Positions 4,969-52,750 of a stretch of 64,000 bases of DNA are shown one piece after another. Position 1 is the stretch's first letter. Every line of letters begins with the position of its first letter. Under the pieces are notes generated by a model. The model saw only the letters and a list, made by a program, of their open reading frames with translations. It had not been told where the DNA came from and searched no databases. The translations under genes were made by a program, and so were the position numbers. Source of the DNA: Myxococcota bacterium (GTDB lineage: Bacteria > Myxococcota_A > Polyangia > HGW-17); assembly GCA_018821305.1 (NCBI GenBank), contig JAHJMN010000189.1, positions 55,115 through 119,114 of the forward strand. The letters are read 5' to 3'.

Positions 4969-5778
4969 TCAGCGGGAATGCTCAAGAAACTCATTTATTT
5001 CAATAACTAATTCGTCCGTTACGTAAACTTTGTTTCGATATTTTAAAAACTTTGGAACCGAAACATGACCCTGACTTGGAACGAGGGGAAAACCAAGAAT
5101 TTCTGTCCAGTCTTCGATTAAGGGTAGAAAACCCATTGGCCCTGAAGTAACGTCCCCATGATGATTTTCGATAGATACAGAAATTTCCGGGGGTATATGC
5201 CACTTTTCAAATAATTGGGCCGCAGCTCTGCAGTGGCTTGTCTTAAACATTTTAAGTTCGCTACGGTTCCCGTCTTTCGAATCGCCAAAGCGAGCAAGTA
5301 CATTTGGATACAACCTTTTAAACTTAAGAATTAAAAGGAAAATCCCAATATCATGAAGCAAGCCCATGGTAAATGCTTCATCTGATTCGCAACCACTCTC
5401 TGAAGCCAGTTTTTTACACAACCATGCAGAGACGAGACTGTGTTTCCAGAACATATCAGCATCTAAGGGCGGTTTTAAAATATCGCTTGTCGTTATCACA
5501 TTCATTGTAGCTGACAGTATTAAATGACCTATTAAACGCTGTCCAAGGAGAATTACTGCCTGTTTCAATGAAGTTACGGGTTTACCAATCCCATAAAAAG
5601 GGCTGTTAGCCAATTTCAGTACTCTTGCCGCTAAAATACTATCCTGACTCAGCAACTCACCAAGTTCCGCAGCAGTCGCGTTGCCCCCAGTTATAGCAGC
5701 CCTCAGTTTTGTACATGCGTCGACACTGCCGGGAAGTTGCTTTATTTCTTCTGTAAAATCAATTGTTTCTTCAGTCAT
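4969..5778 (-). CDS. HDOD-domain signalling protein
   Basis: AAELGELLSQDSILAARVLKLANSPFYG...LKQAVILLG matches the HDOD signature. Last gene of a tightly packed minus-strand unit. Confidence 0.75.
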   Translation of the reverse strand: MTEETIDFTEEIKQLPGSVDACTKLRAAITGGNATAAELGELLSQDSILAARVLKLANSPFYGIGKPVTSLKQAVILLGQRLIGHLILSATMNVITTSDILKPPLDADMFWKHSLVSAWLCKKLASESGCESDEAFTMGLLHDIGIFLLILKFKRLYPNVLARFGDSKDGNRSELKMFKTSHCRAAAQLFEKWHIPPEISVSIENHHGDVTSGPMGFLPLIEDWTEILGFPLVPSQGHVSVPKFLKYRNKVYVTDELVIEINEFLEHSR

Positions 5779-6435
5779 TTATTTTCCACTTGTAAAAACA
5801 TCCTGACGAAGAACACGCATTCTTATGGAAGTTCCGGAATCATCAGGTTCTGATGCGGATTCATCCTGCCAGGCAATAAAATAAAGATCTCCTACTTTTA
5901 CTACTGTCGGCATTTTCTGATGATTCAGGTAGGTAGTATTGACAGAAATTTCGTCGCTCATGGGATTAGCGCCATAATCAAAACGACGCCCCCTTATCCC
6001 GGCACCGTTTCCATCCACAGCACGTCCCGTTCCGTAAGGGATACACAAACCTTCATGACACCAGGTATCGCCTGAACATTGTTCATCCCCCGTGCAGTTT
6101 CCCTGAGTATCTATGCATGTATTATCAAGGCAGAGCTGCTGCTCTGTGCAACATTCGTCTCCACACGGAGTAGTATCTGGATCACACTGAACAGAACCGT
6201 CAGCATCCGCCGCATCAAATACATCACCATCGGATGCGTCAGTAATATCAGTAATATCCGCATCAATTATATCGGAGCCAGCATCTGTTATTTCTCGTAC
6301 GCAAATATGGTTTACGCACTTCAGGCCATCAGCACAAGCCAGGCGAATCCCACATTCATCTCCTTCACCTGAGCCATGATATTCCGTTCCAATAGTGCAT
6401 GATGTAAATATTATAAGAATTACCAGATATTTCAT
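5779..6435 (-). CDS. secreted cysteine-rich, acidic lipoprotein (unknown function)
   Basis: Signal peptide MKYLVILIIFTSCTIG (lipobox). Many Cys and D-rich stretches (DADITDITDASDGD). Start overlaps the dapA stop, and its stop abuts the HDOD start. Confidence 0.55.
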   Translation of the reverse strand: MKYLVILIIFTSCTIGTEYHGSGEGDECGIRLACADGLKCVNHICVREITDAGSDIIDADITDITDASDGDVFDAADADGSVQCDPDTTPCGDECCTEQQLCLDNTCIDTQGNCTGDEQCSGDTWCHEGLCIPYGTGRAVDGNGAGIRGRRFDYGANPMSDEISVNTTYLNHQKMPTVVKVGDLYFIAWQDESASEPDDSGTSIRMRVLRQDVFTSGK

Positions 6436-7304
6436 ATAATTCCTACCTTTTCAAGTTCATTTTCCAGTATCCGAGCCGATTCATTGGAGAGCTCTGATAG
6501 TGGAAGTCTCACTTCATGACTTTTTATGAGCCCCATTTTCATAAGCGCATACTTTACAGGCGCAGGACTTGTTTCAATGAAGAGCAGGTCACATAATCTT
6601 AAATATTTATAATAAATATCAAGGCTTTCACTTGAATTCGATGACCAACAATCAAACATTTTATGGAATTCTTTCGGAACCAGGTTAGCAACAACACTGA
6701 TAGCCCCCTGCCCTCCAATTGCAAGGAGAGGAAGATTTATTTTATCATCGCCACTTAAAAGGGGAAAACCCGGGCATAATTTTAAAATATCTGCTGCCTG
6801 ACCAACATTACCTGATGCTTCCTTGATTGCAATTATATTTTTGTGCTCATAAAGCCTTGAAACAACTGAGGGACTCATATTGATACCAGTTCGACCTGGA
6901 ACATTATATAAAATCACTGGAATTGGGGATGAATCGGCAACTTTTGTAAAATGACGAGCAAGCCCTTCAGGGCCTGGTTTGTTATAATATGGGGTAACAA
7001 CGAGAGCAGTCTGGGCCCCATACTCAGCGGCAAGTCGGGTTCTTACAATGGTTTTTTCCGTATCATTCATTCCAGTTCCGACAATAAGTGGAATCCTGCC
7101 CCCAATTTTATCAGCAGCATTCTTTACAACCGTACAAAACTCATCATCAGAAAGAGTTGCTGCTTCCCCGGTGGTTCCGCAGACAACAATTCCATCTGTT
7201 TCGTTTTCCAGATGATAATTAATTAATTTCAAAAAAGAATCATTATCAAGTTTTCCTTGCAAAAACGGGGTTACAACAGCGACAATAGAGCCTTTTATAA
7301 GCAT
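6432..7304 (-). CDS. dapA: 4-hydroxy-tetrahydrodipicolinate synthase
   Basis: N-terminus MLIKGSIVAVVTPF, GTTGE motif and overall DapA/NAL-family conservation; 290 aa. Confidence 0.9.
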   Translation of the reverse strand: MLIKGSIVAVVTPFLQGKLDNDSFLKLINYHLENETDGIVVCGTTGEAATLSDDEFCTVVKNAADKIGGRIPLIVGTGMNDTEKTIVRTRLAAEYGAQTALVVTPYYNKPGPEGLARHFTKVADSSPIPVILYNVPGRTGINMSPSVVSRLYEHKNIIAIKEASGNVGQAADILKLCPGFPLLSGDDKINLPLLAIGGQGAISVVANLVPKEFHKMFDCWSSNSSESLDIYYKYLRLCDLLFIETSPAPVKYALMKMGLIKSHEVRLPLSELSNESARILENELEKVGII

Positions 7305-7377
7305 TCAAACACCTCGGAAGTAATCGGTTATTTCTTTTCAAATATAACTCCGCAAAGGACATCGGAGAATATCTGCA

Positions 7378-7470
7378 TAGTTCGTGTCCGGAAATCGTCA
7401 AAGACGACAACTGTTTTCACCGAAAACAGTGAAAGTCCTGAGAGAAAAACTGTATTCAGGACAGTAACTG
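7378..7470 (+). mobile_element. MITE-like intergenic repeat, short copy with terminal inverted repeats plus internal module cgtcaaagacgacaa.tgttttca.cgaaaacagtga.agtcctgag
   Basis: tagttcgtgtccggaaat ... caggacagtaactg; the internal module recurs at 41.1 kb and 44.4 kb. Confidence 0.65.
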
Positions 7471-7650
7471 CATAATAATGAATATGTTCCATTTTGCTTT
7501 TTTTTTCAACAAACTCTTGTACCAATTTCGAAAATGATTCTTTACAGGTGAGGTTAATTTGGCGACTTAAAGATTTCAGCTTGAATTTATATCTGAAATA
7601 CTTTTTACTTTAAAACTAATAGGAGACACAAAGCGCCTCCTGAGGAATAC

Positions 7651-8406
7651 ATGAATCTGAACTCATTCAAATGGCTCGGTTATTTTTTCCTTCTCTCCGG
7701 AATGGGGATTGTAACCCTCTCCATGGGCTGGATTGCTGGATTTCACGGTCTCGGTACCCTCATGACTGTCTCATTAATTCCTCTTCTTCTGGCTGTTCTT
7801 ATTTCGTTTTTTGTCATCAATATTCAGGAGAACGATCTTAAAAAAAGAGACCTGGAACGGAATCTGAACATGAGAACAATACAATTACAGGAAGCAAATC
7901 AGATAATCCGAAGGATTTCTACTAAAGATAGACTGACAGGGCTGTACAATCGCCGGGGACTGAGAGAATTATTGAAACGTGAAATACTTCGATGTGAACG
8001 TCTCAAGACATCCCTTGTTGTTCTGGCAATTACATTTGATGAAGGACGCGATAAAGATAATATAAAAAGATACTCAATGATGAGCGTTCTTGGTAAAAAA
8101 TTGTCAAACTACATTCGCTCTACTGATGTTTTTGCGAGGGTAAGCGAAGATACACTGGCAATTCTTCTTCTGGATACTGGAGTAGATGGTACAAAAATCT
8201 TTCTCGACAGACTTTATGAACAGTTGAACCAGAGCAGTTTCCGATTTCCCGTTTTCAGAGCAGGGTTGGCAATTTTTCCAACACACAGCCCTAATCCTGA
8301 TGATTTAATTAACATGGCTATGCATACGGCGAAACAAACGAACCCAGGCGATATGGGAATTTCTGACGGATTTATACCCGACAATGTACACTCCGGGATT
8401 GACTGA
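7651..8406 (+). CDS. membrane-anchored degenerate GGDEF-domain protein (GGDEF replaced by SEDT; I-site RxxD retained)
   Basis: Two N-terminal TM helices. DRLTGLYNRRGL matches the GGDEF-domain start. The position of RYGGEEF reads RVSEDTLAILL. RSTD sits five residues upstream, matching the I-site RxxD. Confidence 0.65.
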   Translation: MNLNSFKWLGYFFLLSGMGIVTLSMGWIAGFHGLGTLMTVSLIPLLLAVLISFFVINIQENDLKKRDLERNLNMRTIQLQEANQIIRRISTKDRLTGLYNRRGLRELLKREILRCERLKTSLVVLAITFDEGRDKDNIKRYSMMSVLGKKLSNYIRSTDVFARVSEDTLAILLLDTGVDGTKIFLDRLYEQLNQSSFRFPVFRAGLAIFPTHSPNPDDLINMAMHTAKQTNPGDMGISDGFIPDNVHSGID

Positions 8407-8407
8407 T

Positions 8408-8549
8408 TAGTTCGTGTCCTGTAATTCGCTTCGCGAAGGATTTTATTAAAAATCCTAACAGGCCACTATTAATATTTTCAACATCTTGTGGTTACTATCC
8501 AGGAAAAAAAATCGACGAAAAATCTTTGTATTACAGGACATTAACTAAT
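8408..8549 (+). mobile_element. MITE-like intergenic repeat (module A copy)
   Basis: tagttcgtgtcctgtaattcgcttcgcgaaggattttattaaaaatcctaacaggccacta ... gtattacaggacattaactaat. The terminal inverted repeat is GTCCTGTAAT / ATTACAGGAC. Confidence 0.7.
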
Positions 8550-8659
8550 TATTCCTCTGTTTTTTATCAGTTTTTTCTTTTCTTTTTAATATTTTGCTTT
8601 ATGAAGTAACTGTTTTGTTTGTTTGTTTTAAATTTATTTATTTTACCATAGGAGGCCAT

Positions 8660-10435
8660 ATGAGGATTTTCATTTTATCAACCACTTTTCTACTACTCTG
8701 GTCTACAAACGCCAGCGCTGCTCAGGAACTGCCTAATTACAGATCTTTTTATAATACTCTTCAGAAAAAAGTTGCGGATATAAAGAGAGAGTCTGTTTAC
8801 AACACAACAAAAAAACCAGAGAAAAAAGCCAAACGAAATTTGTTTCGTATGAAAGTAGGATCGAAAAGCATCGATTATTCAAAACTTGATGCAGTAGTCC
8901 TGCCAATAGATCCTCTGAAATTTGACTGCTCACACACAAATATATCCCGGGGTATGCCAACAGATCCGAGATTTCGCAAGGGTTCAATCAAATCTGCCCT
9001 CAGTTGGGCAAAGGATTATCTTTTCTCATCTAAACCATCAAGATCCGGCCCCGTCGAAGCTTGCAACAAAGGCATGTGGAACCTCATGAAAGCCAGATGC
9101 ATGGACAGCCGCGATCCTGAAATCGCACAACTCTATGTTAAAGGACGAACACACTGTCGTCGTGTTTTCAGGCGATGGTGGGTTGAAGAAACCTATAAAG
9201 CTGAAGGAAAAGAAATCCCACTGTGGGCCGTAGACCCCTCATCTTTGACGGAGCAAATTGCATCGAAAATCAGGTGGGGCGAGAATTACCTTAAAACTCC
9301 ATCAAAGTGGTACAGTTACATGATTGAATATTTGGATATTCTCTCAATCGATCCCAAAAATCGTTTTGCAAAAAAAGGTTTCGATATCATGTACTCCAGC
9401 TACTTTGGAGTGTCCCAGGACGAAGCTCGTAAGGCCAGAAAATCAGGAATCCTTGGTGGACCTCTTTCTACCCTCCCAAAGTCTGATTTGTATAAAAAAG
9501 CAATTAATGAACTCCTCGGAAAGCATCATACAGTTTCTGGTAATATCCCAACACTTGGGCTGACTTACAGAGATGTTAATTATCTTCTCACGATGGTTTA
9601 TCTACCTGCTATTCGGCGTAATCAATCTCAGTTCGCTTCACTCAAATGCTCAATTAATCTCAGAAAAGGCATGAAGGATTTTCGTGAAAAAGCTGTTACC
9701 GAAGAAATGAAACTGGAAAAATCCAGATATTGTTACCCATCAAGTCTCACGGTAGCAGGATCTGATGTAATGCGATACCCGACCATAAGACTGAAACTTA
9801 TTGAGATTCTTTCAAAACAAACAGATACACCTGCCGATGTCTATGCCGAAGCAGCTAAAACTGTGGCCAGACAAATCGGAGCTAAAAAATCCAGAGTCTG
9901 CTGGCTCCATGAAAATCCATATCCGGAGTCAATTAATCCATCTGCTGGAAATAAAGCAAATTGCTCAAGTTTTGGTCATTCTGGATACCACAATGTTCGA
10001 CCCGGTTTTTATAACTATGTATATGAACCAGTCAAACTGAACACTTTAACCTTCCTTCAGGTTAAGCTTGCAAGAAAACTTATTAAAGATATTCCTGCTG
10101 CATCAGGCCTTGACGGCAAACTTGCAAGAGTTGAAAAGAGAGCAAAAAAAGAAAAATGTCTCGCATGGGATATCACCATAGCATGGGATTACTTTGGGCG
10201 TGGAAAATGGGGAAAACCATACCGCTATTCAAACGGTGGACCTAAAGAAGTAAGCTGTGGTTCATTCGCAAGAAGTGGATTATTTTCTACAATTTTCAAG
10301 ACATGGAACAACTTTTTTGACACTGTTTTTGGCGGCCGTTTTACTGGAGGCGAACGAATTATTCGTCGTCGCTACAGTGGAGTTATACTCCGGAAAACTC
10401 GGGAAGGCCGACTTTTTGTAAAGCGTAAAATCTGA
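8660..10435 (+). CDS. secreted hypothetical protein, K/R-rich
   Basis: ATG at 8660 has AGGAGG six nt upstream. Signal peptide MRIFILSTTFLLLWSTNASAAQE. The ORF-track start at 8594 is a TTG and probably spurious. Confidence 0.55.
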   Translation: MRIFILSTTFLLLWSTNASAAQELPNYRSFYNTLQKKVADIKRESVYNTTKKPEKKAKRNLFRMKVGSKSIDYSKLDAVVLPIDPLKFDCSHTNISRGMPTDPRFRKGSIKSALSWAKDYLFSSKPSRSGPVEACNKGMWNLMKARCMDSRDPEIAQLYVKGRTHCRRVFRRWWVEETYKAEGKEIPLWAVDPSSLTEQIASKIRWGENYLKTPSKWYSYMIEYLDILSIDPKNRFAKKGFDIMYSSYFGVSQDEARKARKSGILGGPLSTLPKSDLYKKAINELLGKHHTVSGNIPTLGLTYRDVNYLLTMVYLPAIRRNQSQFASLKCSINLRKGMKDFREKAVTEEMKLEKSRYCYPSSLTVAGSDVMRYPTIRLKLIEILSKQTDTPADVYAEAAKTVARQIGAKKSRVCWLHENPYPESINPSAGNKANCSSFGHSGYHNVRPGFYNYVYEPVKLNTLTFLQVKLARKLIKDIPAASGLDGKLARVEKRAKKEKCLAWDITIAWDYFGRGKWGKPYRYSNGGPKEVSCGSFARSGLFSTIFKTWNNFFDTVFGGRFTGGERIIRRRYSGVILRKTREGRLFVKRKI

Positions 10436-10563
10436 TTTCCCCACCTATCCTTTGATTCCTGCTTCTTTTTACAAACTATTAATAAAATTATTAGTGAATA
10501 AAAAATTACCGGTGTTATATTGGCACCAATTCACTTCTTGCAGCTTTCTGGAGTTCTCAAGCG

Positions 10564-13500
10564 ATGATTTCCGATAATTTTCAGTCTTCGCCACTTTTCA
10601 ATCAAATAGTTGATAATATTCTTGAAAATGTTGACATTAAACTTAGCTCCGGGGATCTGGCTGATCTTCGCACTGTTCTCGTGGGAGCAAGGAATCAACT
10701 TATTTCCATTGAAAGAGAACTCGCTAATCTGAGTATAAAAACTGAAGAGATAAAGCGAGCAAATAAAAATTTTCTCAAATTGTATAATAGTGCTCCAGTT
10801 GGTTACCTGAGCATAGATATTGAAGGAAAAATTATTTCAATTAATATAACTGGAGCATCTCTTCTGGGCAAGCTTCAGATAAATCTTATTGGAGATAACT
10901 TTTTCACTTTCTTATCTAAAGACGAACATGAGCTTCTTTCGGAAAAGATCAGAAATACCGCTATCACCGGGGAATCATTTAAGCATGATCTGACAATTAA
11001 CCGACCTAACGGTTCAATGATGCATGCAGCTCTCGAAGGCGAAGTTGCCTCTTCTCATGACGGTTTTTTCAATATTGTTATCAGTGATATTACCATCCGT
11101 AAAATTTCCGAAATGGCCCTCAGGCGTTCGGAAGGATGGTTTCGAGCAACAATTGACGCCGTAAGTGAAATACTTGTAGTTGTCGATCCTTCTCTTAGAA
11201 TTCTGCTTTGTAATGAAGCATTTAGAAGGCAAATGGCCAGGATTAAAAAGTTTTCTGAACCTGTGGGTGAAAACATTATTGATTTTTGTCCATTTTTGGG
11301 TGAACGAGAGCGCAATGAATTCCAATGGATTTTCGAAACGGGCAAAGCAGTCAACTCGCGTATTGATTTCAAATCGGACTCCTTTGATTTGTTTCTTGAA
11401 ACTCGGCTTATTCCTATTTTCGATAATCAGGGAAAAGTAGTTCAGACCCTTGGCGTAATGACAAACATCACTGATAAAGTGATTGCCACAAATGCCAGTG
11501 AAGAAAAAGAAGTCTACCTTAAGGGCATTATTGAAAATGCTAACGACATAATCTTTTCTTTCAATCTCGACGGTTCAATTACATATATTTCCCCGGCGTT
11601 TTCTCGAATTCTAGGTAGAAATACCAGAGATATTCTAGGGAAAAATCTTTCTTCAAACCTTCATGCAGACGACATTGCCGAGTGGGAAAAAGCTACCAGA
11701 GTACTTCTTACGGACCATGAACCAATACGGAACCTTAAAATCCGTTTTAAAAACAAAAGCAATGAATGGTGGTGGTTTCTTGTAAGTATGTCTATTGTTG
11801 AAAACAAAGATGGCAACATCATCTATGGAGTCGGTGTTGCGACGGATATTAACGCACTCATTAAATATCAGGAAGCACTGGAAGAATCACGTCTTAGTTA
11901 TAAAGAATTATGGGAAAGTCAGGGAGAAGGTGCCGCTTTTCTGGATCCCAATGAAGTATTTATTCATGTTAACCCCTTTGGAGAAAAGATTTTCGGTCTT
12001 GACAGAGGTGTTCTCAAAGGTCGTAGTCTTCTTGAATTTGTTGATAATCAGGACCTGATTACGCTCCGTAATGAAACAAAGAAAAGGAAAAAGGGAGAGT
12101 CCAGTAACTACGAGCTCAAAATTAAACTGCCGGATGAAACAAATCGCATTATTTCAATTACTGCAGCGCCTAAATTTGATGACGTGGATGGAACGTACCT
12201 CGGAACTTTTGCTATTTTCCGTGATATCACTTCCAAAAAGGAACTCGAAAACAACCTCAGGAACAGTGAAGAAAGACATCGACAATTATTTGAAAATAAT
12301 GCTGCGGTGCAACTGATTATAAGCGCAATGGATGGAAGCATTATTGATGCAAATCCCGCAGCAAGTAAGTTTTATGGACATTCCAGAGAAAAATTGCGAT
12401 GCATGAACATGACTGATTTGAATGGTCTGACAACGGATCATGTCAAAGAATTTATTCGTCAGAGATTAGAAGAAGAAAAGTATATATTTCATCTTAAACA
12501 TAAACTGGCAAGCGGCGAACTACGAGATGTTGAGGTTAAAACCAGCCCCGTAAAGATAAACGACGACCTTTTAATTCACTCTTTTATTACTGACATAACC
12601 CAGCAGCGTTTGAGCGGGGAAAAATCAGCACATCTCGAAAGAATGCTCATCCATTCTCAGCGAATGGAAGTTTTCGGTAATATAGCCAAAAGCTTAACCA
12701 CAGAATTTTCTACAATTTTATCCGAGATTGGAGAAAAAACTACATTTCTGCGGAAAGGTGGCCAACTTCCGCCGGAATCTGCGGAAATAGATTCTCTTAT
12801 TGAAAAGGGACAAAAGCTTATAAACCATATTCTTATGTTTGGCTCTAATCTCCCCTTTGAGCTACAAAAGTGGGATCTTATCCCATTTATCGAAAGAATG
12901 CAGCCCATCATCGGTATGATTCTTGGTGCAAACTATGAGCTTTCCTTTCAACTCAAGGGTGGTGGAAGTGTCTTTCTTGACCCAATTCTTATGGAGCAGG
13001 TCATTGTCAACATAATTACAAACAGTCGTGATTCAATGCCGAGAGGTGGCTCTGTTACCGTATCAACTGATACTGCAACTTTTGCTGAACCCAGCCACGC
13101 TCTGGGTCTCTCTTCCGGTCGGTACTCAGTTATAACAATTCATGATCAGGGAGTGGGCGTAGAAAAAGAAATGGAAAAACACATTTTTGAACCATTTCTT
13201 ACCACCAGGCGTATCAAGTCCTCTACCACAGGCTTGTCCCTGATTACCGTGCATGGAATTATGAAACAACATTTGGGTGCCATTGAATTAGTTAATGAAT
13301 TTGGCGTTGGGACCATGGTCAGACTATATATGCCACTGATTGATGGTGTTGAAGTAACAACCTGTGATGATAGAATCCTGAATAAAACTGTACTTATTGT
13401 AGACGATGAAGAGGGGATAAGAGCCGTAACCCGGAAAATTCTTGAAATGGAAGGATTAAGAGTAATCGAATCACCGTCAGGAGAAGACGCACTTAAGTTT

Positions 13501-13746
13501 ATTGAAATACATCATCCAGAGATTGATCTTGCAATAATTGATATGATATTACCTGGAATGACTGGCAATATATTCAGCCAGTCACTTGCAGAATTATACC
13601 CTTCAACTCTAATGTTATTTATTTCCGGTTACCCGGAAAGCCTTGTTGCAAGGCTTGGAATTGATGAAAGCAAAGTAAACTTTCTATCCAAACCATTCAG
13701 TGTAAAACAATTCCGGGATAAAGTTCGCAGCATTCTCTGCATGTAA
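10564..13746 (+). CDS. multi-PAS hybrid histidine-kinase-like protein with C-terminal receiver; canonical phospho-acceptor His absent
   Basis: At least four PAS-like blocks. The dimerisation/H-box region reads SQRMEVFGNIAKSLTTEFSTIL where related kinases have KMEAvGrLAGGvAHDFNNLL. HATPase N box NIITNSRDSMPRGG and G1 DQGVGV are present; the G2 box is degenerate (TTGLSL). The REC domain has DDEEG, the acceptor Asp in IIDMILPGMTG, and S and K in the expected places. Confidence 0.75.
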   Translation: MISDNFQSSPLFNQIVDNILENVDIKLSSGDLADLRTVLVGARNQLISIERELANLSIKTEEIKRANKNFLKLYNSAPVGYLSIDIEGKIISINITGASLLGKLQINLIGDNFFTFLSKDEHELLSEKIRNTAITGESFKHDLTINRPNGSMMHAALEGEVASSHDGFFNIVISDITIRKISEMALRRSEGWFRATIDAVSEILVVVDPSLRILLCNEAFRRQMARIKKFSEPVGENIIDFCPFLGERERNEFQWIFETGKAVNSRIDFKSDSFDLFLETRLIPIFDNQGKVVQTLGVMTNITDKVIATNASEEKEVYLKGIIENANDIIFSFNLDGSITYISPAFSRILGRNTRDILGKNLSSNLHADDIAEWEKATRVLLTDHEPIRNLKIRFKNKSNEWWWFLVSMSIVENKDGNIIYGVGVATDINALIKYQEALEESRLSYKELWESQGEGAAFLDPNEVFIHVNPFGEKIFGLDRGVLKGRSLLEFVDNQDLITLRNETKKRKKGESSNYELKIKLPDETNRIISITAAPKFDDVDGTYLGTFAIFRDITSKKELENNLRNSEERHRQLFENNAAVQLIISAMDGSIIDANPAASKFYGHSREKLRCMNMTDLNGLTTDHVKEFIRQRLEEEKYIFHLKHKLASGELRDVEVKTSPVKINDDLLIHSFITDITQQRLSGEKSAHLERMLIHSQRMEVFGNIAKSLTTEFSTILSEIGEKTTFLRKGGQLPPESAEIDSLIEKGQKLINHILMFGSNLPFELQKWDLIPFIERMQPIIGMILGANYELSFQLKGGGSVFLDPILMEQVIVNIITNSRDSMPRGGSVTVSTDTATFAEPSHALGLSSGRYSVITIHDQGVGVEKEMEKHIFEPFLTTRRIKSSTTGLSLITVHGIMKQHLGAIELVNEFGVGTMVRLYMPLIDGVEVTTCDDRILNKTVLIVDDEEGIRAVTRKILEMEGLRVIESPSGEDALKFIEIHHPEIDLAIIDMILPGMTGNIFSQSLAELYPSTLMLFISGYPESLVARLGIDESKVNFLSKPFSVKQFRDKVRSILCM

Positions 13747-13759
13747 AATAGCTTTTTAT

Positions 13760-14908
13760 TCAGGTGCCCCTGAGGGAAATAACTTCATCATATATAGATT
13801 CCAGTTTTTCATTAACTTTAATTATATCATAATGTTCAAGCATTCGCTCTCGAGCGTTTTTCCCCAATTCTTCTCGTAATACTCTGTTAGAAAGAATGCG
13901 AAAAAGACCATCGGCCATCCCTGCTACATCTCTCTCAGGATAAAGAAAACCAGTCTTTCCATCTGCAACAATATCCGGTAGACCCCCATGCCAGTGTGCC
14001 AGGACCGGAACACCACATGCCTGCGCTTCTTTTGCGACTATCAAACCAGATTCCCTGTCCATATTTGGAGCGACCAGAGAAGGTGTTATAACTACCGTAG
14101 CCTGTTTCATTGCCTTCATTACTTCGTCATGAGGAAGAGCTCCCGGCATTTCAACTAAATTTGAAACTCCATATTTTTCTGCAATTTCTATTAGTTCCCC
14201 CCGAAGAGGGCCATCTCCAATAATAAGCATTTTCGCTGCAACACCGCGGTGAACAGCATGTGCAAATGCTCTTATTCCAAAAGCAAATCCCTTTTTTGCT
14301 ACAAATCGGCCAACCATGACAACCAGATTATCCCCTGGACTGACTGCTGGTGGTGAAAAACGAGAAATATCTATACCCAGTTTGTGTACTTTAATTTTAT
14401 TTTCAGGACAACCGGCTTCAATTGCCAGCTCTTTAAGTTCCGAAGACGCCGCCAGAAATAGTGTGGCATGGTTGAAAATTTCATTTTTCCGCATTGTATA
14501 ATAAAAAAATTCAGGATTCTTCTGATCAGGTCCAACTAAAATCGTCACATCTCTACCATGAAGTGAGACAACAAGAGGAATTTTAAACTTTTTAGCATAA
14601 GGTAAAGCATACAGTGTATTATGACCGAAGTGAGCATGAATAAGTTTAAAATCTCTTTGGGCAAAAACATTGTAAAAAGGTTTATATAAACCAGTAAGAC
14701 CATAAATTAAACTTGCAGGACTTAAAGAACCCATTAAATTCTGATCCGTTGAAAACACTTCATGCCCAGGATAAACATCTCGATTCAGATACTTCCTGGC
14801 AAATACAGTGCCGCGATATTTTTTATGAAAACGAAGTTCATCGTGAATGAACGTCTCGGATAAATGTAGAAAATTATTTCTAAAAAGAGCAAATTCAAGT
14901 ACTGACAT
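13760..14908 (-). CDS. glycosyltransferase family 4 (GT-B fold)
   Basis: EAQACGVPVLAHWHGGLPDIV matches the E-A-x-A-x-G-x-P-V motif of the GT1/GT4 C-terminal domain; about 380 aa. Confidence 0.8.
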   Translation of the reverse strand: MSVLEFALFRNNFLHLSETFIHDELRFHKKYRGTVFARKYLNRDVYPGHEVFSTDQNLMGSLSPASLIYGLTGLYKPFYNVFAQRDFKLIHAHFGHNTLYALPYAKKFKIPLVVSLHGRDVTILVGPDQKNPEFFYYTMRKNEIFNHATLFLAASSELKELAIEAGCPENKIKVHKLGIDISRFSPPAVSPGDNLVVMVGRFVAKKGFAFGIRAFAHAVHRGVAAKMLIIGDGPLRGELIEIAEKYGVSNLVEMPGALPHDEVMKAMKQATVVITPSLVAPNMDRESGLIVAKEAQACGVPVLAHWHGGLPDIVADGKTGFLYPERDVAGMADGLFRILSNRVLREELGKNARERMLEHYDIIKVNEKLESIYDEVISLRGT

Positions 14909-16385
14909 TGGTGGTTCCTTTCTTGAATTTTAAATCTTTATTAAGTGAGAAGTAAAAAATTGCATAAATTGCCATGAGGCCACCCCCGGTAATTAATCTT
15001 GCAACAAGAGTTGAACGGGTAAATAACGGGAAAAATGGCCATAAGAAAATCAATAATCCAAGTATAATCCAGAAAGATAGTATTTTCAGAGATAAAACCA
15101 TTCCTATGAGCTTTCTCGCCTCAATAATCTGCATTATGGAGACTATAGTCCCGGAAATTGCCGTTGCAACTGCAGCCCCCATGAGGCCCCAATGAGGTAT
15201 TAAAATTAAATTAAATATGAAATTAAGCACCCCTACGGTAATGGAATTGAATAGATTCCAGCGGGAAAACCCAGCCATAATTATCGCATTTCCCGTAAGA
15301 CCTGTTGCTATAGAAAGGAAGGGATTTATCAGGAGGATAATCATGAAGTCTGGATTCTGATTAAAAGAAGAATCAAAAAGCATTACAAGATCCTGTCGGT
15401 AGAATGCGACCACAAACAGGGCTGGAATTCCAAGGGATATTGCCCATCCTGTAATTTTTTCAAATATATTATTAAGCTCAGATATTCTACCTTCATGATA
15501 GTGCCTGGCAATGACCGGACTGTAGATTCCTGAAAAAATAAGCTTTACTTGACGTACATTCCGTACGATTTGAGCACCAATGCTATAGAACGCTATCATG
15601 CCTGGTTTAACTCCAAAACCAGCAAGCATAAGTACATCCATGGAAGAAATCAGGCGATTAAGTGCCATGTTCAAGTTCTGAGCAATGGCGAAAGTAAAAA
15701 GATCCGGGGTAGGTTTGTACACGAATTTAAAAGACATAAACTTACGGATATCTACCAGCCTGTTAAGCATAAAAATAGAGACAACCCCGGTGATGACCCA
15801 GCCGAGTAAAAAAGATAGCCCGGTGCCCACAGTACCCAAATCACACAAACGAAAAAGAACTGCCAGTACCAAAGTCGCGATGGGAAATACTCCACCTATT
15901 GTGATGACTTCTACACCCATTTTCAGGTGTGCTTTTGGAATAGCTACCGCAAGACGTGAAACGGCTTCCAGAGGTAAGATAAATGCCATTATCTGCAGCA
16001 TAGGGACTAGCTCGGGATAATCTTTGTAATAAAATTTATTTAGAACAGGGGCTCCGAATACCAGAAGAAGGGCAAGGACAGTGCTTAGTAGCAGTGTTGA
16101 AAGAATAATCTTTCTCATGTACGAATTGAATACATCCGAGTTATTCTCATCGTGAATATGCCTTGATGCGAACATCACTGTAGCATCAATAAAACCGCTT
16201 ATAGCAAGACCTCCCAGTATTTCCACAAGATTGTATGCAATAAAGAAAATTCCTATCGAAACTTTACCATACATTCTTGTGAGAACCAGAAAAAGAACAG
16301 GTCCCCCAATTATTTTTGTAAGCATTCCAATGAAATTTACAAAAGCTCCTTTTTTTATCTTTCTGGTAATATCAGCTTCAGTCAT
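14895..16385 (-). CDS. polysaccharide/oligosaccharide flippase (Wzx-like, MOP superfamily)
   Basis: 496 aa, about 12 to 14 predicted TM helices, N-terminus KKGAFVNFIGMLTKIIGG typical of Wzx. Overlaps the GT4 gene by 14 nt. Confidence 0.75.
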   Translation of the reverse strand: MTEADITRKIKKGAFVNFIGMLTKIIGGPVLFLVLTRMYGKVSIGIFFIAYNLVEILGGLAISGFIDATVMFASRHIHDENNSDVFNSYMRKIILSTLLLSTVLALLLVFGAPVLNKFYYKDYPELVPMLQIMAFILPLEAVSRLAVAIPKAHLKMGVEVITIGGVFPIATLVLAVLFRLCDLGTVGTGLSFLLGWVITGVVSIFMLNRLVDIRKFMSFKFVYKPTPDLFTFAIAQNLNMALNRLISSMDVLMLAGFGVKPGMIAFYSIGAQIVRNVRQVKLIFSGIYSPVIARHYHEGRISELNNIFEKITGWAISLGIPALFVVAFYRQDLVMLFDSSFNQNPDFMIILLINPFLSIATGLTGNAIIMAGFSRWNLFNSITVGVLNFIFNLILIPHWGLMGAAVATAISGTIVSIMQIIEARKLIGMVLSLKILSFWIILGLLIFLWPFFPLFTRSTLVARLITGGGLMAIYAIFYFSLNKDLKFKKGTTNVST

Positions 16386-16428
16386 ATTGGCTTTTTATCA
16401 CATGTGAGAAACAGCAGAAACAGAATTT

Positions 16429-18708
16429 TCAGGGGACAGCGTAAATGCGAACGGACCAGGGCGGGAGAGAAACATTTACCTGTCCTGATGAAACAGATAA
16501 AGTGTCCGTCTCGTAAAGAACATCTGCAAGTGTAGTTCCATCAGAAATGCCCCAGGATGACTTCATTTCTATCTGGGTATTACAGCCATCATTTCCACCT
16601 AAAACAACAAGCAAACGTTCGTTTCCAAGTTTTTTAAGGTATGCCAGACAAGACGCAGATCCATGACCTGCATCATAACTTCCAGTCCTGAGAGCTTTGT
16701 AAGTATTTCTTGCATGATTAAGTCTTGAAACGAGATCCTTGAGATTTCTCTGAGCATCACTCAAATTAGTATCCGAAAAATCCATCATCCTGCGATTATC
16801 CGGATCCTTAACACCAGCAAGTCCGAATTCATCACCGTAATAAATAACAGGAAGTCCACGCACTGTCAGAAGAAAACCGAAAGCAACACCCATACGTTGA
16901 TATACAGTAGCATCACCAGTTTGAGGTACAAGTGCCTCATTAAATGCCTGACATCCGTCTCCATTTGCCTGTCCTGCGGCTACCGAGGAAAATCTCTCGA
17001 CATCATGGTTGCCGAGGAAAGTCCCCATAAGTGTACCAGTGGAAATTGAACCTTCCAACGCCCAATCAAGATCAGTAATGTTCTGACGATTAATATGATT
17101 CTCATATATAAATGTATTCAGATCAAGCAGATTGCTTACAGCACCTATTAAAGCAGTACGTATAGCTCCATACATTGGAAAATCAAACTGTCCCTGTAAT
17201 TCTGAAGAGCTTATTTTCTCATTTATTATACCGTAATCGTACAGGAAGTTTTCACCAACCATATAAAATGGCGCAGTAATGGAGGATGCTTTTTGGTCTA
17301 GTTCTCGCCTGAGAAGTCTCAAATAGTTTGAATTTATATGCTTTGTTGCATCTACCCGAAATCCGTCCAGATCGAATGTATCCACCCACCACATGGCATC
17401 ATCAATTAACTGACGAAGCAGAAGATGGTTTTTGTGATTGTAGTCAGGAAGATATTCTGTGAACCAGCAAGTGAGCGCATATTCATTCCACCCGAGGTGA
17501 CCGCACTTGTTTTTCCAGAACTCATCAGTATTAATGCTTCCTGGATAATTAAACCAGAATTGATTTCCGTAATATTGTTCATGCAGCGGATGATCTATAA
17601 ATATGTGATTGGCTGCCCAGTCAACCAGCACCCGGATTCCTCTGGCATGAGCCTCATAGACAAGTTCCTGAAGATCCTCAATAGTACCGAAATGATTCTC
17701 AACATCACGTGCTGCCTGAGGCCAGTAAGCATGATATCCAGAGAACGACTGACCACAATCACCCGGTAATGCGTAATCGGGATTGTCCATTGGCGTTGAA
17801 AGCCACAAAGCAGTAATGCCTAAATCTTCAAAGAAGCCATCTTTGAGTTTTTGAGTTATGCCCTTCCAGTCACCTCCACGCCAGTTAACCTGTTCCGGAA
17901 GTCCGGAGATAGGAGCATCATTTGAAACATCGCCATTATAAAATCTATCGACAAAAATGGAGTACATTATCATGTCTTCCCAGACTTTTCCTTCAGGCTC
18001 CATCCAGAAAGATAAATTTCTTGAATATGTTGTTCCATTTTCTGAATTTACGTTTATTTCAACTTTATATTTTCCAAGTACCAGATTTGATGCGGTTACT
18101 GTCCCAATTCCTGTTTGTGGGTTAAAATTAAGTGAAGAATTGACTTCAACCCCATCTTTTCTTAGTATTGCCTCGACGTTTTCAATATTTGAACCATCTC
18201 CTCCGCGATAGATCTGAAATGTCATGGATGCAGATTTTTCATCCCAGTTCACAGTTGTGTTTAACTCCCTGGTTGTAGCAGAACTACAATCAGGAAGAGT
18301 CATCAGTGAGTTTTCATTGATTTGAGTCTTATCCCAGATAGTATACGGATTTGATGAATCCAAATGCCAATTTGTAGAATCCGAAACTAATTTATATTCG
18401 TATTCTCCAGCGGGGAGGATTATTAAGCCAGGCCTGGATTCATGGGGATTACTCGTAACTGAAATAGTCCAGGTATAACCATCCCTAAGTAAAAGCCAGT
18501 CATCATCAATTTGCCACTCATTAAAGTTTCCTGCAAGATGGACACTGCCTTCACTTCCGGCATTATAAACAATATTAAAAGTACAATCAGTTCTAACAGG
18601 AATGCTGCTTGAATTATTTGTATTATTACTATTGTTTCCGGTATTAGTTGATGACTCATCACAACCGAGTGAAAATAGTGACACACATAAAATAAGTAAA
18701 AATTTCAT
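16429..18708 (-). CDS. GH13 alpha-amylase-family glycoside hydrolase, lipoprotein with N-terminal accessory domains
   Basis: Lipobox LFSLGCDE. GH13 region II GFRVDATKHI, region IV FLGNHD, region I-like VLVDWAANH. Confidence 0.85.
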   Translation of the reverse strand: MKFLLILCVSLFSLGCDESSTNTGNNSNNTNNSSSIPVRTDCTFNIVYNAGSEGSVHLAGNFNEWQIDDDWLLLRDGYTWTISVTSNPHESRPGLIILPAGEYEYKLVSDSTNWHLDSSNPYTIWDKTQINENSLMTLPDCSSATTRELNTTVNWDEKSASMTFQIYRGGDGSNIENVEAILRKDGVEVNSSLNFNPQTGIGTVTASNLVLGKYKVEINVNSENGTTYSRNLSFWMEPEGKVWEDMIMYSIFVDRFYNGDVSNDAPISGLPEQVNWRGGDWKGITQKLKDGFFEDLGITALWLSTPMDNPDYALPGDCGQSFSGYHAYWPQAARDVENHFGTIEDLQELVYEAHARGIRVLVDWAANHIFIDHPLHEQYYGNQFWFNYPGSINTDEFWKNKCGHLGWNEYALTCWFTEYLPDYNHKNHLLLRQLIDDAMWWVDTFDLDGFRVDATKHINSNYLRLLRRELDQKASSITAPFYMVGENFLYDYGIINEKISSSELQGQFDFPMYGAIRTALIGAVSNLLDLNTFIYENHINRQNITDLDWALEGSISTGTLMGTFLGNHDVERFSSVAAGQANGDGCQAFNEALVPQTGDATVYQRMGVAFGFLLTVRGLPVIYYGDEFGLAGVKDPDNRRMMDFSDTNLSDAQRNLKDLVSRLNHARNTYKALRTGSYDAGHGSASCLAYLKKLGNERLLVVLGGNDGCNTQIEMKSSWGISDGTTLADVLYETDTLSVSSGQVNVSLPPWSVRIYAVP

Positions 18709-18770: not shown

Positions 18771-19517
18771 CTATTCTTTTTGATTACTTTTTTCTTTTTT
18801 AATTGATTTTATTAAGGATGGGTCATCAAGATCCTCAAAGTTTTCTGGTATTTCTATTTTTTTTCCAGGCTCTTTAGATTCTTGAACAACTTCATCGGAC
18901 TCGATTGGATTTTCTTCTATTATATCTATGTCTTCAGAAGCATCTTCTGAGTCCGTCTCTGATATTAAATTATTAAAAAGACAAGGAACATTTATTTCTT
19001 CAAGAATTTCTATAGATTCAAAATCATCATTCTGAACAGGAGTTTCATTCTCCAGATCAACTACTAGTTCGCGGAACTCAGGGATTGGTTTTATCCAATT
19101 AGCCCACAAGGTACGGACAACATCGTTGGCGCCTGCAATAAAAATTTTTGTTTTGGGTGGAAATATATCGACTATTGCATCCCGAGTCTGTTTTTCATTA
19201 TATGAACTGGTAGCAATAAAAAGTGCTCCGGATTCAGGATCGCTACAAAATGGTACAAAATGGTAATTTAAACAGACATTCAAACCATATTGATTCACAA
19301 GGATTCTGGGAATCGGTTTTTCTTCAAGGAGTACACAGGGCATATCCCATTGATATGCGAGACACTCTACGAGTTGAAACTCTGTAATCAACCCTTCAGA
19401 AATTAGAATCCGACCCAATTTTCCACCGAAATATTCCTGTTTCCACAAACAGAAAGCTAATTGCTCGTGGGTTATCAACTCTTTTATGATAAGTATCTGT
19501 CCTAATTTCATACGCAT
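18771..19517 (-). CDS. standalone MshEN (T2SS-E N-terminal-like) domain protein, putative c-di-GMP receptor, with an acidic C-terminal tail
   Basis: Two tandem copies of the MshEN motif RLGxxLLxxGLLxxxxLxxxLxxQ: KLGQILIIKELITHEQLAFCLWKQ and KLGRILISEGLITEFQLVECLAYQ. The second matches perfectly. Confidence 0.65.
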   Translation of the reverse strand: MRMKLGQILIIKELITHEQLAFCLWKQEYFGGKLGRILISEGLITEFQLVECLAYQWDMPCVLLEEKPIPRILVNQYGLNVCLNYHFVPFCSDPESGALFIATSSYNEKQTRDAIVDIFPPKTKIFIAGANDVVRTLWANWIKPIPEFRELVVDLENETPVQNDDFESIEILEEINVPCLFNNLISETDSEDASEDIDIIEENPIESDEVVQESKEPGKKIEIPENFEDLDDPSLIKSIKKEKSNQKE

Positions 19518-25947: not shown

Positions 25948-27978
25948 ATGAACAATATCAACCAGGATGTTACCAGATTCAAACCCCACTTTTCGAGAAG
26001 AGTGTTCCTTATGATGGCTCTTACAAGTTTTGCAAGTGCACTTCTTACGGGGGGAATCGGCTCTTTCTTAAGCTTCAGAACAATAAAAAAAGCACGGATT
26101 AACCGTGGACAGGAAATGGTTTCCTATCTTGCAAATTCCAGTGAAACTGCGGCAATCAGCCAGGATGATACTTTCCTTGAAGGTGTCTTTGATAGAATCA
26201 GCAATTCAAAAATCTATGCTGGCGCAGGAGTTTATGACAATAGTGGAAAATTACTTTTCTCCAGAGTACCGTCAGGAGAATCAGCAATGCCTTCAGAATT
26301 AACTCTTCAGGCAAAACATAAAAATAACACGGTTCATACTTATTCTGAGTCAGGCAACACCCTCACTTTACTGGCGCCAGTGTTTGTTACTCGTTATAAT
26401 AATTCTCAAATTACTCATGGCTCTGTTGATAAAATTGATCGAAAAGCGATACTTTCGGGATATGCCGTTTTTAAAATAACACATTCCCTCGAGCAGAATG
26501 AGAGAACAGAAGTTGTTGTTACTGGCGGAATTTTATTTATTTCTGTTTTTGTTATTGGACTTTTTTTCAGTTGGGGAAGTGCCGCTGCTCTTTCAAATCC
26601 AATCCGAAGGATCATAAAAGGTGTAAATCTCCTTAATCAAGGAGATCTTCACAACCGTATTGCAGTAGTTTCCCGGGATGAAATGGGGCAGATAAGCGAT
26701 CTTATAAATATTTTGGCTGCAAATCTCGCCCAGCGCATGGAAGAACTTGAAAAATGGGGTCGACTTCTTGAAGAAAAAGTTCAACAGCGAACGAAAGAAG
26801 TTAAACTTACAAAAGAATTTTTGCATGACCTTATCGCACCAATTTCCGGTAGTTCAAATTCATGGGACAGTCTAATGGAAATCCTGAGGATTGGAACTGG
26901 CGCTGATGGAGTTTCACTATATTTTCTGAGAGATAAACGTTTTGATTTAATTGCAAAATCTGGGCAAACATCTCCTCCTGACCTAGATATTAAAGAGAGA
27001 AAAACTGTAAGTAAAGACAACTTGACAATCACTTTCCTTCCAATGATGTCACCAACTGGAATCACAGGACAGATTGTACTTACAAAATCCGAAGGAAGTA
27101 TAAGTGTTGATTTTGCGGATCAAGTTCTTCCTGCATTAACAATAACTTCTTCAAATATAATGACGTTTGAACAACTCACCTCTGTGAGAGCTGCCCTTGA
27201 AGAAAGAACCAGAATTCTGGAAGTTCAGAGAGAAGAACTTATCCGGCAAAAAGAGCAGATTGAAGCAGCGGCAAAACTCAAAAGTGAATTTCTGGCAAAT
27301 GTTTCACATGAACTTAGAATCCCTCTGAACGCAATAATTGGCTACAGTGAAATGCTTGTAGCCGGATACTATGGTAATATTTCCAATGAACAAAAAGATA
27401 CTCTATCTGCAATTGAAGAAAGTGGACGGAATCTTCTCAACCTTATCAACACTATTCTTGATCACTCAAGAATGGAAGCAGGAAAATTACCTTTATATGT
27501 TGAAATGATTGATGATTTGCGAAAGCTCTTAAAGGACGTAGTTGGCAGAAATCAAAGTCTGACTAGAGAAAAGGATTATCGAGTCGAACTTGAAATACCT
27601 GATACTCCAGTCCCATGTATGACAGATGGAGGAAAAATCCAGCAGATCGTCACAAATCTTGTTTCTAACGCTGTAAAGTTCACTCAGGAGGGAAGTGTAA
27701 AAGTTGCTCTTGTTACAAGTCATAACAATATTGTTATTTCAGTAACAGACACCGGTATCGGTATTCCGGAAGAATTTCATGATCATATTTTTGAAGAATT
27801 CCGTCAGATTGACGGGTCTTCCACCAGATCTGCTGGCGGTACAGGGCTGGGACTTTCTGTCAGTCGCAAAATGGCACATCTTATTAAAGGTGAAATCACC
27901 GTAAAATCAACGCCCGGAAAGGGCTCCGTTTTTTCAATAACATTCCCTAGAAAAATTGAAAAATCTGAAGACCAGTAA
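25948..27978 (+). CDS. sensor histidine kinase (periplasmic sensor, HAMP, GAF-like, HisKA, HATPase_c)
   Basis: Two TM helices flanking a periplasmic domain of about 150 aa. HAMP domain. Canonical H-box SHELRIPLNAIIGYSEML. N box NLVSNAVKFT, G1 DTGIGI, G2 GGTGLGLSV. Confidence 0.85.
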   Translation: MNNINQDVTRFKPHFSRRVFLMMALTSFASALLTGGIGSFLSFRTIKKARINRGQEMVSYLANSSETAAISQDDTFLEGVFDRISNSKIYAGAGVYDNSGKLLFSRVPSGESAMPSELTLQAKHKNNTVHTYSESGNTLTLLAPVFVTRYNNSQITHGSVDKIDRKAILSGYAVFKITHSLEQNERTEVVVTGGILFISVFVIGLFFSWGSAAALSNPIRRIIKGVNLLNQGDLHNRIAVVSRDEMGQISDLINILAANLAQRMEELEKWGRLLEEKVQQRTKEVKLTKEFLHDLIAPISGSSNSWDSLMEILRIGTGADGVSLYFLRDKRFDLIAKSGQTSPPDLDIKERKTVSKDNLTITFLPMMSPTGITGQIVLTKSEGSISVDFADQVLPALTITSSNIMTFEQLTSVRAALEERTRILEVQREELIRQKEQIEAAAKLKSEFLANVSHELRIPLNAIIGYSEMLVAGYYGNISNEQKDTLSAIEESGRNLLNLINTILDHSRMEAGKLPLYVEMIDDLRKLLKDVVGRNQSLTREKDYRVELEIPDTPVPCMTDGGKIQQIVTNLVSNAVKFTQEGSVKVALVTSHNNIVISVTDTGIGIPEEFHDHIFEEFRQIDGSSTRSAGGTGLGLSVSRKMAHLIKGEITVKSTPGKGSVFSITFPRKIEKSEDQ

Positions 27979-28110
27979 TTTTTGCTTAAAACTCTCAAAT
28001 TAGTGTTGTAGTATCACAGTTCAATACTATGTGAATGCAGCAGTGGCCTTGCTTTTTTAATAGATGACCGCTGCCGCGTGAACCGGTCCCGGGAAAGGCA
28101 ACTTAAATTT

Positions 28111-45865: not shown

Positions 45866-46795
45866 TCAGCGGCCGCGTAAAATTGCACTGAAAAACTCAC
45901 GAAAATTGTAAAGGTGGAAATCTTTTGCCCTGATTGGAATAAAAACAAGGAGAAAAAGATGCATTGCTGTTATGAGAATTGCCTGCCAGCCGTTATCCGA
46001 AAATGGCCTCCCGGGCAATACTGCCGCGACAATTATCTGTGCGATAGTGAACGCTTCTGTAGCAAGAATGAAAATGTAACCGATTCGAATATATCTTATT
46101 AAAAATAAACCACCCAAAACAAGTAAAAACACCGCCGCTGCAGAATTGGGAAGTCCTGAACTCTGAGTCCGGCCAAAATGATAAACGGTAGCTGAGGAAA
46201 AAAACAGCATCAGTGCCTCAAAAAAGAAAACACCGGCGCTGACTCCAGGGCCAATCCAGGTGGGAGCTAATCTTTGGGTTTCCTGACGAAAACTTTCGAC
46301 ACTCACGTTTGCAGTAATTGATTCTATAAGATTTTTAATTGTTTTGCGTATACTTTCGAGGCCTGGATATTTGGAAAAAAAGTAAAATCTCGCCCCTTCA
46401 ACAACTACGGAATCTGAGATGCCAAAATGGATGTGCGTCTCTGACTCGGGAGACAGGATCTTCCACGGAGCCGCTGGTTTTTCCTCTTTTTCATATTTCC
46501 CCAGTTTAAAATAATCAGTTAGAAAAACCCTGAATGCTTCGGGATCCATATCGTCACCGGTCACAAACATAGTTATAAGTTTCTCAGGTTCCATCTCACT
46601 GTTCCCTGAGGACTTTCCATTTATAATGTCAACCCGACGGACTTTCCCAGAGGCTTTACGAATAGAAGCGACTTCCCATTCCACCGGTAAAATAATATTA
46701 CACAATGCCTGGAGATGGCTAGGGGCCATGGGATCAACTCTGAGTTTTTCCATTATCTCCGTTTTATCGAATTTTTCGTCCATCTTAACCTCCAA
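45866..46795 (-). CDS. hypothetical membrane protein
   Basis: 309 aa, soluble N-terminal half and three or four C-terminal TM helices. Overlaps the upstream TPR gene by 11 nt. Confidence 0.45.
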   Translation of the reverse strand: MEVKMDEKFDKTEIMEKLRVDPMAPSHLQALCNIILPVEWEVASIRKASGKVRRVDIINGKSSGNSEMEPEKLITMFVTGDDMDPEAFRVFLTDYFKLGKYEKEEKPAAPWKILSPESETHIHFGISDSVVVEGARFYFFSKYPGLESIRKTIKNLIESITANVSVESFRQETQRLAPTWIGPGVSAGVFFFEALMLFFSSATVYHFGRTQSSGLPNSAAAVFLLVLGGLFLIRYIRIGYIFILATEAFTIAQIIVAAVLPGRPFSDNGWQAILITAMHLFLLVFIPIRAKDFHLYNFREFFSAILRGR

Positions 46796-48936: not shown

Positions 48937-49008
48937 AAAGTACCTCCATTTTGTAAACGAATACTACACCCTCTGGATATGTGTTTGCAATAGAAAGCAG
49001 CGATAAAA

Positions 49009-50409: not shown

Positions 50410-50521
50410 CAGGCATTATTACGCATTGCAATCAGGAAAACTACCCCTCTTTTTTTATTTTTTTATCTTCGTTTCAAATTTGTAGAGAGCTTGAAAAATC
50501 GTAATTCAGGACTGAGACTTT

Positions 50522-51220: not shown

Positions 51221-51245
51221 TAATTCGTTATCCTGACAAAGTTAA

Positions 51246-51575: not shown

Positions 51576-51628
51576 AAAACGGTCAACAAAGAATAATGTT
51601 CAAAACTAATTTACTTGATTGAAGAAAT

Positions 51629-52036: not shown

Positions 52037-52070
52037 TTCTTTAACAATCACAAAATTTGACCTATTTTCT

Positions 52071-52730: not shown

Positions 52731-52750
52731 TATTGACTCCGCGGATTCAG

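Follow-up and report, generated by a model that had tools for sequence, protein, structure and literature searches.

A hybrid histidine kinase-like protein of Myxococcota without the phospho-acceptor histidine and with an intact receiver: a candidate histidine pseudokinase

Introduction

Pseudo-histidine kinases illustrate how two-component hardware is re-used for protein-protein signaling; to our knowledge just a handful have been studied (DivL, PsmA and RocA). Here we describe a His-less hybrid histidine kinase-like protein encoded in a 64,000-nucleotide stretch of a Myxococcota genome (GenBank assembly GCA_018821305.1, contig JAHJMN010000189.1, positions 55,115 to 119,114), referred to below as the window. 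This protein, hereafter the query, has lost the phospho-acceptor His and part of the ATP site, and has retained the receiver chemistry. With two relatives it forms a clade that is an independent and very small example of His-less hybrid histidine kinase-like proteins, a kind already described.

DivL of Caulobacter carries Tyr at the acceptor position, and RetS of Pseudomonas aeruginosa has retained the His of its H box. The histidine kinase domain of DivL senses DivK~P, and its signal runs backwards to the PAS domains and controls CckA (PMC4211667; bioRxiv 10.1101/812529). RetS acts on GacS through contact between the dimerization and histidine phosphotransfer (DHp) domains of the two proteins, which disrupts the GacS DHp dimer (PMC8498467). 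PsmA, a hybrid histidine pseudokinase of Streptomyces, has different residues in place of the acceptor in different orthologs, shows erosion of the ATP motifs and lacks autokinase activity; it is confined to Streptomycetaceae, binds DivIVA and functions via protein-protein interaction (PMC12963549). A further Caulobacter hybrid kinase, CCNA_03265 (CC3162), lacks the conserved His and keeps the receiver Asp, and its authors propose phosphorylation by a histidine phosphotransfer (Hpt) protein or heterodimer formation (PMC11481889).

The query shares with DivL a multi-PAS N-terminus and histidine kinase-like DHp and ATP-binding (CA) domains without the acceptor His. DivL, however, is membrane-anchored and lacks a fused receiver, whereas the receiver of the query is covalently attached, and Thr or Asn stands at the His position in its clade. 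PsmA matches the query in having PAS, DHp, CA and C-terminal receiver domains, a replaced H-box His, eroded ATP motifs and conservation; it differs in having two PAS domains, a disordered linker of ~700 residues before the receiver, and no E/DxxT/N motif of any form. His loss in PsmA and in the query clade was presumably independent, their likeness implying no common descent beyond the general histidine kinase fold. CCNA_03265, biochemically uncharacterized and mentioned in passing, can be likened to the clade by description only. The best sequence and fold matches are the CckA-like / PRK13557-type kinases (CckA 5IDJ and 5IDM; Brucella CckA receiver 6TNE), which have the same PAS-DHp-CA-receiver architecture.

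A three-member clade of the CckA-like family

The gene product (Table 1) is NCBI entry MBU1219599.1, titled 'PAS domain S-box protein [Myxococcota bacterium]'. An N-terminal region is followed by five PAS domains, the DHp, the CA and the receiver. The Pfam models PAS_9, PAS, PAS_4 and PAS_8 each match five stretches of the protein, and the five-PAS array is a sensory and interaction module. The protein is cytoplasmic/soluble, with no transmembrane segment (maximum KD19 1.53).

The clade consists of three sequences in two lineages: the query, P0001 (95% identity) and P0002 (62%). The P0001 locus, L003, is 87.6% identical to the window locus at the nucleotide level; P0002 is MBN2725009.1, from a 'Deltaproteobacteria bacterium' metagenome-assembled genome (MAG). 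Both relatives share the N-terminus and length of the query. A 5.8e9-cluster search returned these two, with all remaining matches at <=34% identity, and an exhaustive HMMER scan of the DHp-CA-receiver core against 1.84e9 representatives found the P0002 cluster alone to be close (482 bits; next 247 bits). A scan of genome contigs for orthologs gave no further clade member, just canonical kinases of 21-32% identity. The His-less clade amounts to three sequences among about 15e9 proteins, a single cluster in a parent family of >80,000 cluster representatives at E<1e-30.

The gene product derives from that parent, the CckA-like / PRK13557-type family of PAS hybrid histidine kinases. Across the whole 380-residue core it is 28-37% identical to its 149 nearest cluster representatives, which together with 109 other homologs aligned by MAFFT form our comparison sets. 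The CckA / PRK13557 hybrid-kinase models are also the nearest in NCBIfam, yet the query falls far under every cut-off. CckA orthology was rejected, the scores to NF046020 and NF046026 being 222.7 and 164.9 bits against an equivalog cut-off of 1000.

Alignment, an AlphaFold2 (AF2) model and Foldseek all find homology to a HisKA-type class I DHp hairpin and a Bergerat-fold CA domain. The AF2 core model has a mean predicted local distance difference test score (pLDDT) of 78 and retains the hairpin, the CA fold and the receiver; pLDDT is low for the DHp of this monomer model and <50 for the ATP-lid segment. Foldseek with the model places CckA 5IDJ at the top (E 1.7e-15), and the CckA CA structure 5IDM is matched at a TM score of 0.8.

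The phospho-acceptor histidine

A preliminary description of the window, made from the letters alone, had claimed that Thr replaces the acceptor His of this kinase, and both alignments bear this out. By MAFFT, the acceptor column holds Thr713 in the query and P0001 and Asn in P0002, and His in 149/149 nearest representatives and 108/109 of the other homologs. The HMMER alignment to the CckA DHp-CA structure 5IDJ likewise sets T713 opposite the His of GGVAHDFNNLL. The H box of the query reads SLTTEFSTIL, aligned without gaps to GIAHDFNNLL of the family, and the strings quoted in that description are found as given (HSQRMEVFGNIAKSLTTEFSTIL at residues 697-719 and TTGLSL at 888-893). The single non-His sequence among the 109, P0042, was rejected as a second His-less relative: its DHp is different and poorly aligned and its CA is intact, so that it is not comparable. 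The alignment with homologs that had been proposed as a check shows the loss to be lineage-wide, T/T/N in all three known members.

Other residues invariant in the family are replaced clade-wide as well (G710S, N716S, N717T/E, G888T/A/S, G892S and S911N). The query has in common with CckA the F box, the adenine contact D861 and the receiver quintet; unlike the CckA family, it has the acceptor His together with G710, N716, N717, G888 and G892 replaced, and no Pfam HisKA match. The scan for HisKA-type domains that had also been proposed found no HisKA, HisKA_2, HisKA_3 or HWE match in the query at E<=1, and P0001 and P0002 are likewise without a HisKA match; with the same tool the canonical relatives P0016 and P0051 match HisKA at 42 and 40 bits. 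Membership of another DHp class (HisKA_2, HisKA_3 or HWE) was rejected on these null matches and on the gap-free alignment to the HisKA-type CckA family. Judged from the aligned columns, the loss of conserved H-box and G2 residues is far beyond chance.

The preliminary description had further allowed the helix a single His, 16 residues upstream of the Thr. This calls for a small correction: the predicted alpha1 (682-731) also has His690, and alpha2 has the clade-specific His755. His690 is variable, being Ser in P0002. The upstream His of IHSQ, His697, had been named as a residue that might occupy the canonical acceptor position; its column lies upstream of the H box and is an ordinary Q/H column, with His in 19/149 intact canonical kinases, and we rejected it as the true acceptor. 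Thr713 was rejected as a conserved phospho-acceptor, Asn being found at the same position in P0002.

The ATP-binding domain

The G2 box had been called degenerate, correctly: TTGLSL at residues 888-893 includes G888T and G892S. The query CA retains the N box (N816, N820), G1 (D861, G863, G865) and the F box; with G2 degenerate, it does not have the complete set of ATP-binding motifs. P0002 has extra losses, N820A at the Mg-binding Asn of the N box, G863N and G865S in G1, and G890V. All of these columns (888 and 892 of the query; 820, 863, 865 and 890 of P0002) are invariant in 149/149 relatives. Pfam HATPase_c scores are 55 bits for the query, 54 and 36 for P0001 and P0002, and 80-87 for canonical relatives.

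Genes of c-di-GMP type near the query gene prompted the idea that its CA might bind c-di-GMP as that of CckA does. Tyr514 and Trp523, which we take to be the CckA contacts for c-di-GMP on the CA beta-sheet face, correspond in the 5IDJ alignment to H897 and A906 of the query; position 897 is Tyr in 77% of the family and His in the clade. The idea was rejected, the Tyr/Trp equivalents not being retained.

The boxes that the query has kept bear on the reading that it is an active kinase or phosphotransferase with a non-canonical acceptor (His755, His697, or Thr713, the last modeled on Ser/Thr-phosphorylating histidine kinase-like proteins), or a Spo0B/ChpT-like His relay from the receiver. Besides the intact N, G1 and F boxes, His755 is in its favor: this residue is clade-specific (the column is Q in 134/149 and H in 2/149 family representatives), is present in 3/3 members, and lies about level with position 713 in the hairpin (16 residues after the alpha2 start vs 18 before the alpha1 end). 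P0002, however, lacks the Asn that coordinates Mg, the two glycines of G1 and those of G2; ATP-dependent phosphorylation therefore cannot be the conserved function of the clade. Thr713 is not conserved and His697 is ordinary variation, as seen above, and the DHp, on which the orientation of His755 depends, has low pLDDT in the monomer model. As to a relay of Spo0B/ChpT type, the query has no His at the alpha1 site; Pfam HPTransfase at E<=1 gave no match in the query, and weak matches in canonical relatives. We regard this whole reading as very improbable.

Purifying selection and shifted constraint

The whole protein is under strong purifying selection. Between the query and L003 genes the ratio of nonsynonymous to synonymous substitution rates (dN/dS) is 0.040 overall at a dS of about 0.7; the receiver has the lowest domain value, 0.020, followed by the PAS array (0.030), DHp (0.034) and CA (0.058), with 0.114 for the N-terminal ~70 residues. 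Missing catalytic residues and a CA that is the fastest-evolving folded part are what might be expected of a decaying or non-functional gene, or of an assembly or sequencing artefact. Such explanations are effectively refuted by the low dN/dS at this dS, by an intact frame of 1059-1060 residues in independent assemblies, by the high conservation of DHp and receiver, and by the Thr codon ACA, which is two substitutions away from CAY.

Identity to P0002 is 61-67% in the PAS domains, 67-76% in DHp, 55% in CA and 66% in the receiver, making CA the least conserved folded domain in the clade, unlike in canonical family pairs. For calibration we took 8,092 pairs of canonical family members whose cores are 50-72% identical. 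CA minus DHp identity is +0.007 +/- 0.072 in these and -0.19 in the His-less clade, with 0.2% of canonical pairs as low; CA minus receiver identity is +0.126 +/- 0.062 and -0.12, with no canonical pair as low. By these differences, constraint has shifted from CA to the DHp helices and the receiver.

The receiver and the DHp surface

The receiver had been described as intact in its DD pocket, acceptor Asp, S/T and Lys, and each of these was found: D947/D948, D993, S1021 and K1043 are present in 3/3 clade members, within VDDEE (946), IIDMILPG (991), FISGY (1019) and LSKPF (1041). Pfam Response_reg matches residues 943-1054 at 62.6 bits, and among solved receivers 6TNE is nearest (E 1e-15). Over residues 694-782 of the DHp region there are 20 clade-specific substitutions at family-conserved columns, identical in both lineages; this looks like a remodeled and then fixed surface rather than simple decay.

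That the receiver is the most constrained domain, with all catalytic residues kept, would suit a pure phospho-sink or a dedicated phosphatase, in which the receiver drains Hpt or relay phosphate and the DHp-CA is a dimerization platform or a phosphatase for its own or another receiver. The query lineage has the ExxT form (E714..T717) of the E/DxxT/N phosphatase motif (PMC12963549). The motif is not conserved in the clade, P0002 having ExxE with Glu as the +4 residue, and a sink would need neither five conserved PAS domains nor a DHp that carries 20 fixed clade-specific substitutions and is more conserved than in canonical pairs. We consider a pure sink or dedicated phosphatase possible, if unlikely.

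A candidate histidine pseudokinase

A histidine kinase fold without the His in 3/3 members and both lineages, together with purifying selection, would make these proteins histidine pseudokinases as far as sequences can tell. We favor, with a probability of roughly 0.6, a histidine pseudokinase whose receiver is phosphorylated from outside and whose remodeled DHp/CA acts by protein contact on a partner. To judge from the residues lost, canonical autophosphorylation would not occur; D993 would receive its phosphate in trans, the donor being a partner kinase, an Hpt protein or a small molecule. The conformation of the remodeled DHp/CA surface would depend both on the five PAS domains and on whether the tethered receiver is phosphorylated, and this surface would act on a partner via protein-protein contact, any phosphate sink being a side consequence. 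By analogy, this might resemble DivL reverse signaling with a DivK-like receiver in cis, or DHp interference of the RetS type. RetS is similarly a hybrid histidine kinase-like regulator of another kinase that does not work via its own kinase output; unlike the query, it is a membrane protein that has a periplasmic sensor and carries two receivers. Candidate partners would be the conserved neighboring degenerate GGDEF and HDOD proteins described below, which are possible members of the same pathway.

The preliminary description had arrived at a pseudokinase with a functional receiver, serving as scaffold, phosphatase or phospho-sink or using an unusual acceptor. Its core holds up; the Asn and the ExxE of P0002 make a Thr713 acceptor unlikely and leave a conserved phosphatase unsupported, and scaffold and phospho-sink are inseparable in silico.

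Several points weigh against the pseudokinase that we favor. The clade is defined by three sequences and two lineages, which makes 'conserved in the clade' statistically light, and the calibration pairs are not independent, orthologs and paralogs being mixed. Unlike P0002, the query has intact N, G1 and F boxes, and by these residues ATP binding may survive in the query lineage. The nearest precedent in architecture, PsmA, does not need its receiver Asp for detectable function (PMC12963549); an intact receiver is therefore no proof of phosphorylation. Finally, the sole link to the candidate partners is synteny, and gene order is inverted between the lineages.

Two more specific possibilities may be mentioned. 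The protein may be 'DivL with its DivK fused on', a self-contained module for reverse signaling in which the phosphorylated receiver docks on the His-less, remodeled DHp and makes the five PAS domains switch either partner kinases or, as pseudo-enzymes of c-di-GMP type, the degenerate GGDEF and HDOD neighbors. Alternatively, His755 may be a relocated phosphotransfer site in a Spo0B/ChpT-like relay that works without ATP and has its acceptor on the 'wrong' helix. That either of these applies seems improbable to us.

The clade offers a clean natural comparison pair, one lineage with most ATP-binding residues and the other without, both with constrained DHp and receiver, useful for studying the roles of a tethered receiver and of a DHp without the His; the clade is also relevant for annotation. 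Practical impact is limited by the source in uncultured Myxococcota MAGs, the three known sequences and the established concept.

Genomic neighborhood

Features of the query gene and its conserved neighbors are collected in Table 1.

Table 1. Positions in the window of the query gene, its domains and key codons, and two conserved neighbors.
Feature	Position	Strand	Evidence
HDOD-domain protein, conserved neighbor	4969..5778	-	Pfam HDOD E 2.4e-44, synteny, alignment
Membrane-anchored degenerate GGDEF protein (RVSEDT for GGDEF)	7651..8406	+	Pfam GGDEF E 1.4e-12, partial match
Complete gene, 1060-residue His-less hybrid histidine kinase-like protein	10564..13746	+	Open reading frame (ORF) list; exact match in protein collection
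N-terminal ~70 residues, without Pfam domain, least conserved part (54% identity to P0002)	10564..10773	+	
Five tandem PAS domains (about residues 84-173, 198-310, 313-440, 450-559, 570-685)	10774..12618	+	Pfam
Degenerate DHp helical hairpin (alpha1 682-731, alpha2 739-759)	12619..12858	+	Alignment, AF2 helices
Thr713 codon ACA at phospho-acceptor His position; Asn in P0002	12700..12702	+	
His755 codon, DHp alpha2; clade-specific Q->H, kept in 3/3 members	12826..12828	+	
CA (HATPase_c) domain; G2/ATP lid degenerate	12964..13353	+	Pfam residues 806-925, 55 bits
Degenerate G2 box SSTTGLSL vs family GKGTGLGL (G886S, G888T, G892S)	13219..13242	+	
Intact receiver: D947/D948, acceptor D993 (13540-13542), S1021, F1040, K1043	13387..13743	+	Pfam

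A block of HDOD, DUF4215, FG-GAP, DHDPS and degenerate GGDEF genes adjoins the query gene or its ortholog in both lineages. From the degenerate GGDEF gene to HDOD the block is inverted in L001, the locus of the other lineage, relative to the window and L003, and is still adjacent to the pseudokinase gene. In L001 the HDOD gene (8812-9615, +) lies directly upstream of the pseudokinase gene on the same strand. The degenerate GGDEF protein is ~85% identical between lineages, above the pseudokinase itself, and its gene is close to the pseudokinase gene in both L001 and L003, which gives the neighborhood another conserved pseudo-enzyme. No Hpt or stand-alone response regulator gene occurs in the 64 kb window, and hence no local phosphodonor. 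A promoter and terminator scan of 7300-14100 gave about as many promoter-like matches as shuffled sequence, and operon boundaries could not be placed in that segment.

The window is without about 3.36 kb that is present in L003 (2354-5713), the site being at 5779-6435 (-). The deletion has produced an in-frame fusion of the N-terminal 137 residues of an 844-residue FG-GAP protein with the C-terminal ~91 residues of a 491-residue DUF4215 protein, a chimeric ORF of 218 residues between the HDOD and DHDPS genes. Immediately upstream of the query gene and on the same strand, 8594-10435 (+) encodes a Lys/Arg-rich protein of 613 residues without a Pfam match, whose N-terminus has a signal-like hydrophobic segment; it is found in L003 (591 residues called) and is absent from the L001 locus. 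A further c-di-GMP-type gene of the region, 18771-19517 (-), encodes a 248-residue protein with an MshEN domain, a fold that we take to be a c-di-GMP-binding module; a PilZ protein is encoded nearby in L001.

Convergent with the query gene, 13760-18708 (-) encodes a GT4 glycosyltransferase, a 496-residue multi-pass membrane protein that looks flippase-like and has no Pfam match, and an alpha-amylase-family enzyme; together these may make up a polysaccharide locus. L003 also has the genes for GT4 and the 496-residue protein, its contig stopping short of where the alpha-amylase gene would lie; downstream of the ortholog in L001 this locus is missing.

The only bona fide histidine kinase in the window is a canonical sCache_4-HAMP-HisKA-HATPase_c protein encoded 12 kb off at 25948-27978 (+), with no cognate response regulator gene adjacent. 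Elsewhere in the window is a eukaryote-like signaling cluster (47917-54346, -) with genes for an FHA protein (47917-48936), a full-length serpin (49009-50409; Pfam E 1.5e-96) and a Ser/Thr protein kinase (52850-54346), adjoined by a TPR protein gene (46785-47909). A 1457-residue protein encoded at 28078-32451 (+) consists largely of TPR repeats.

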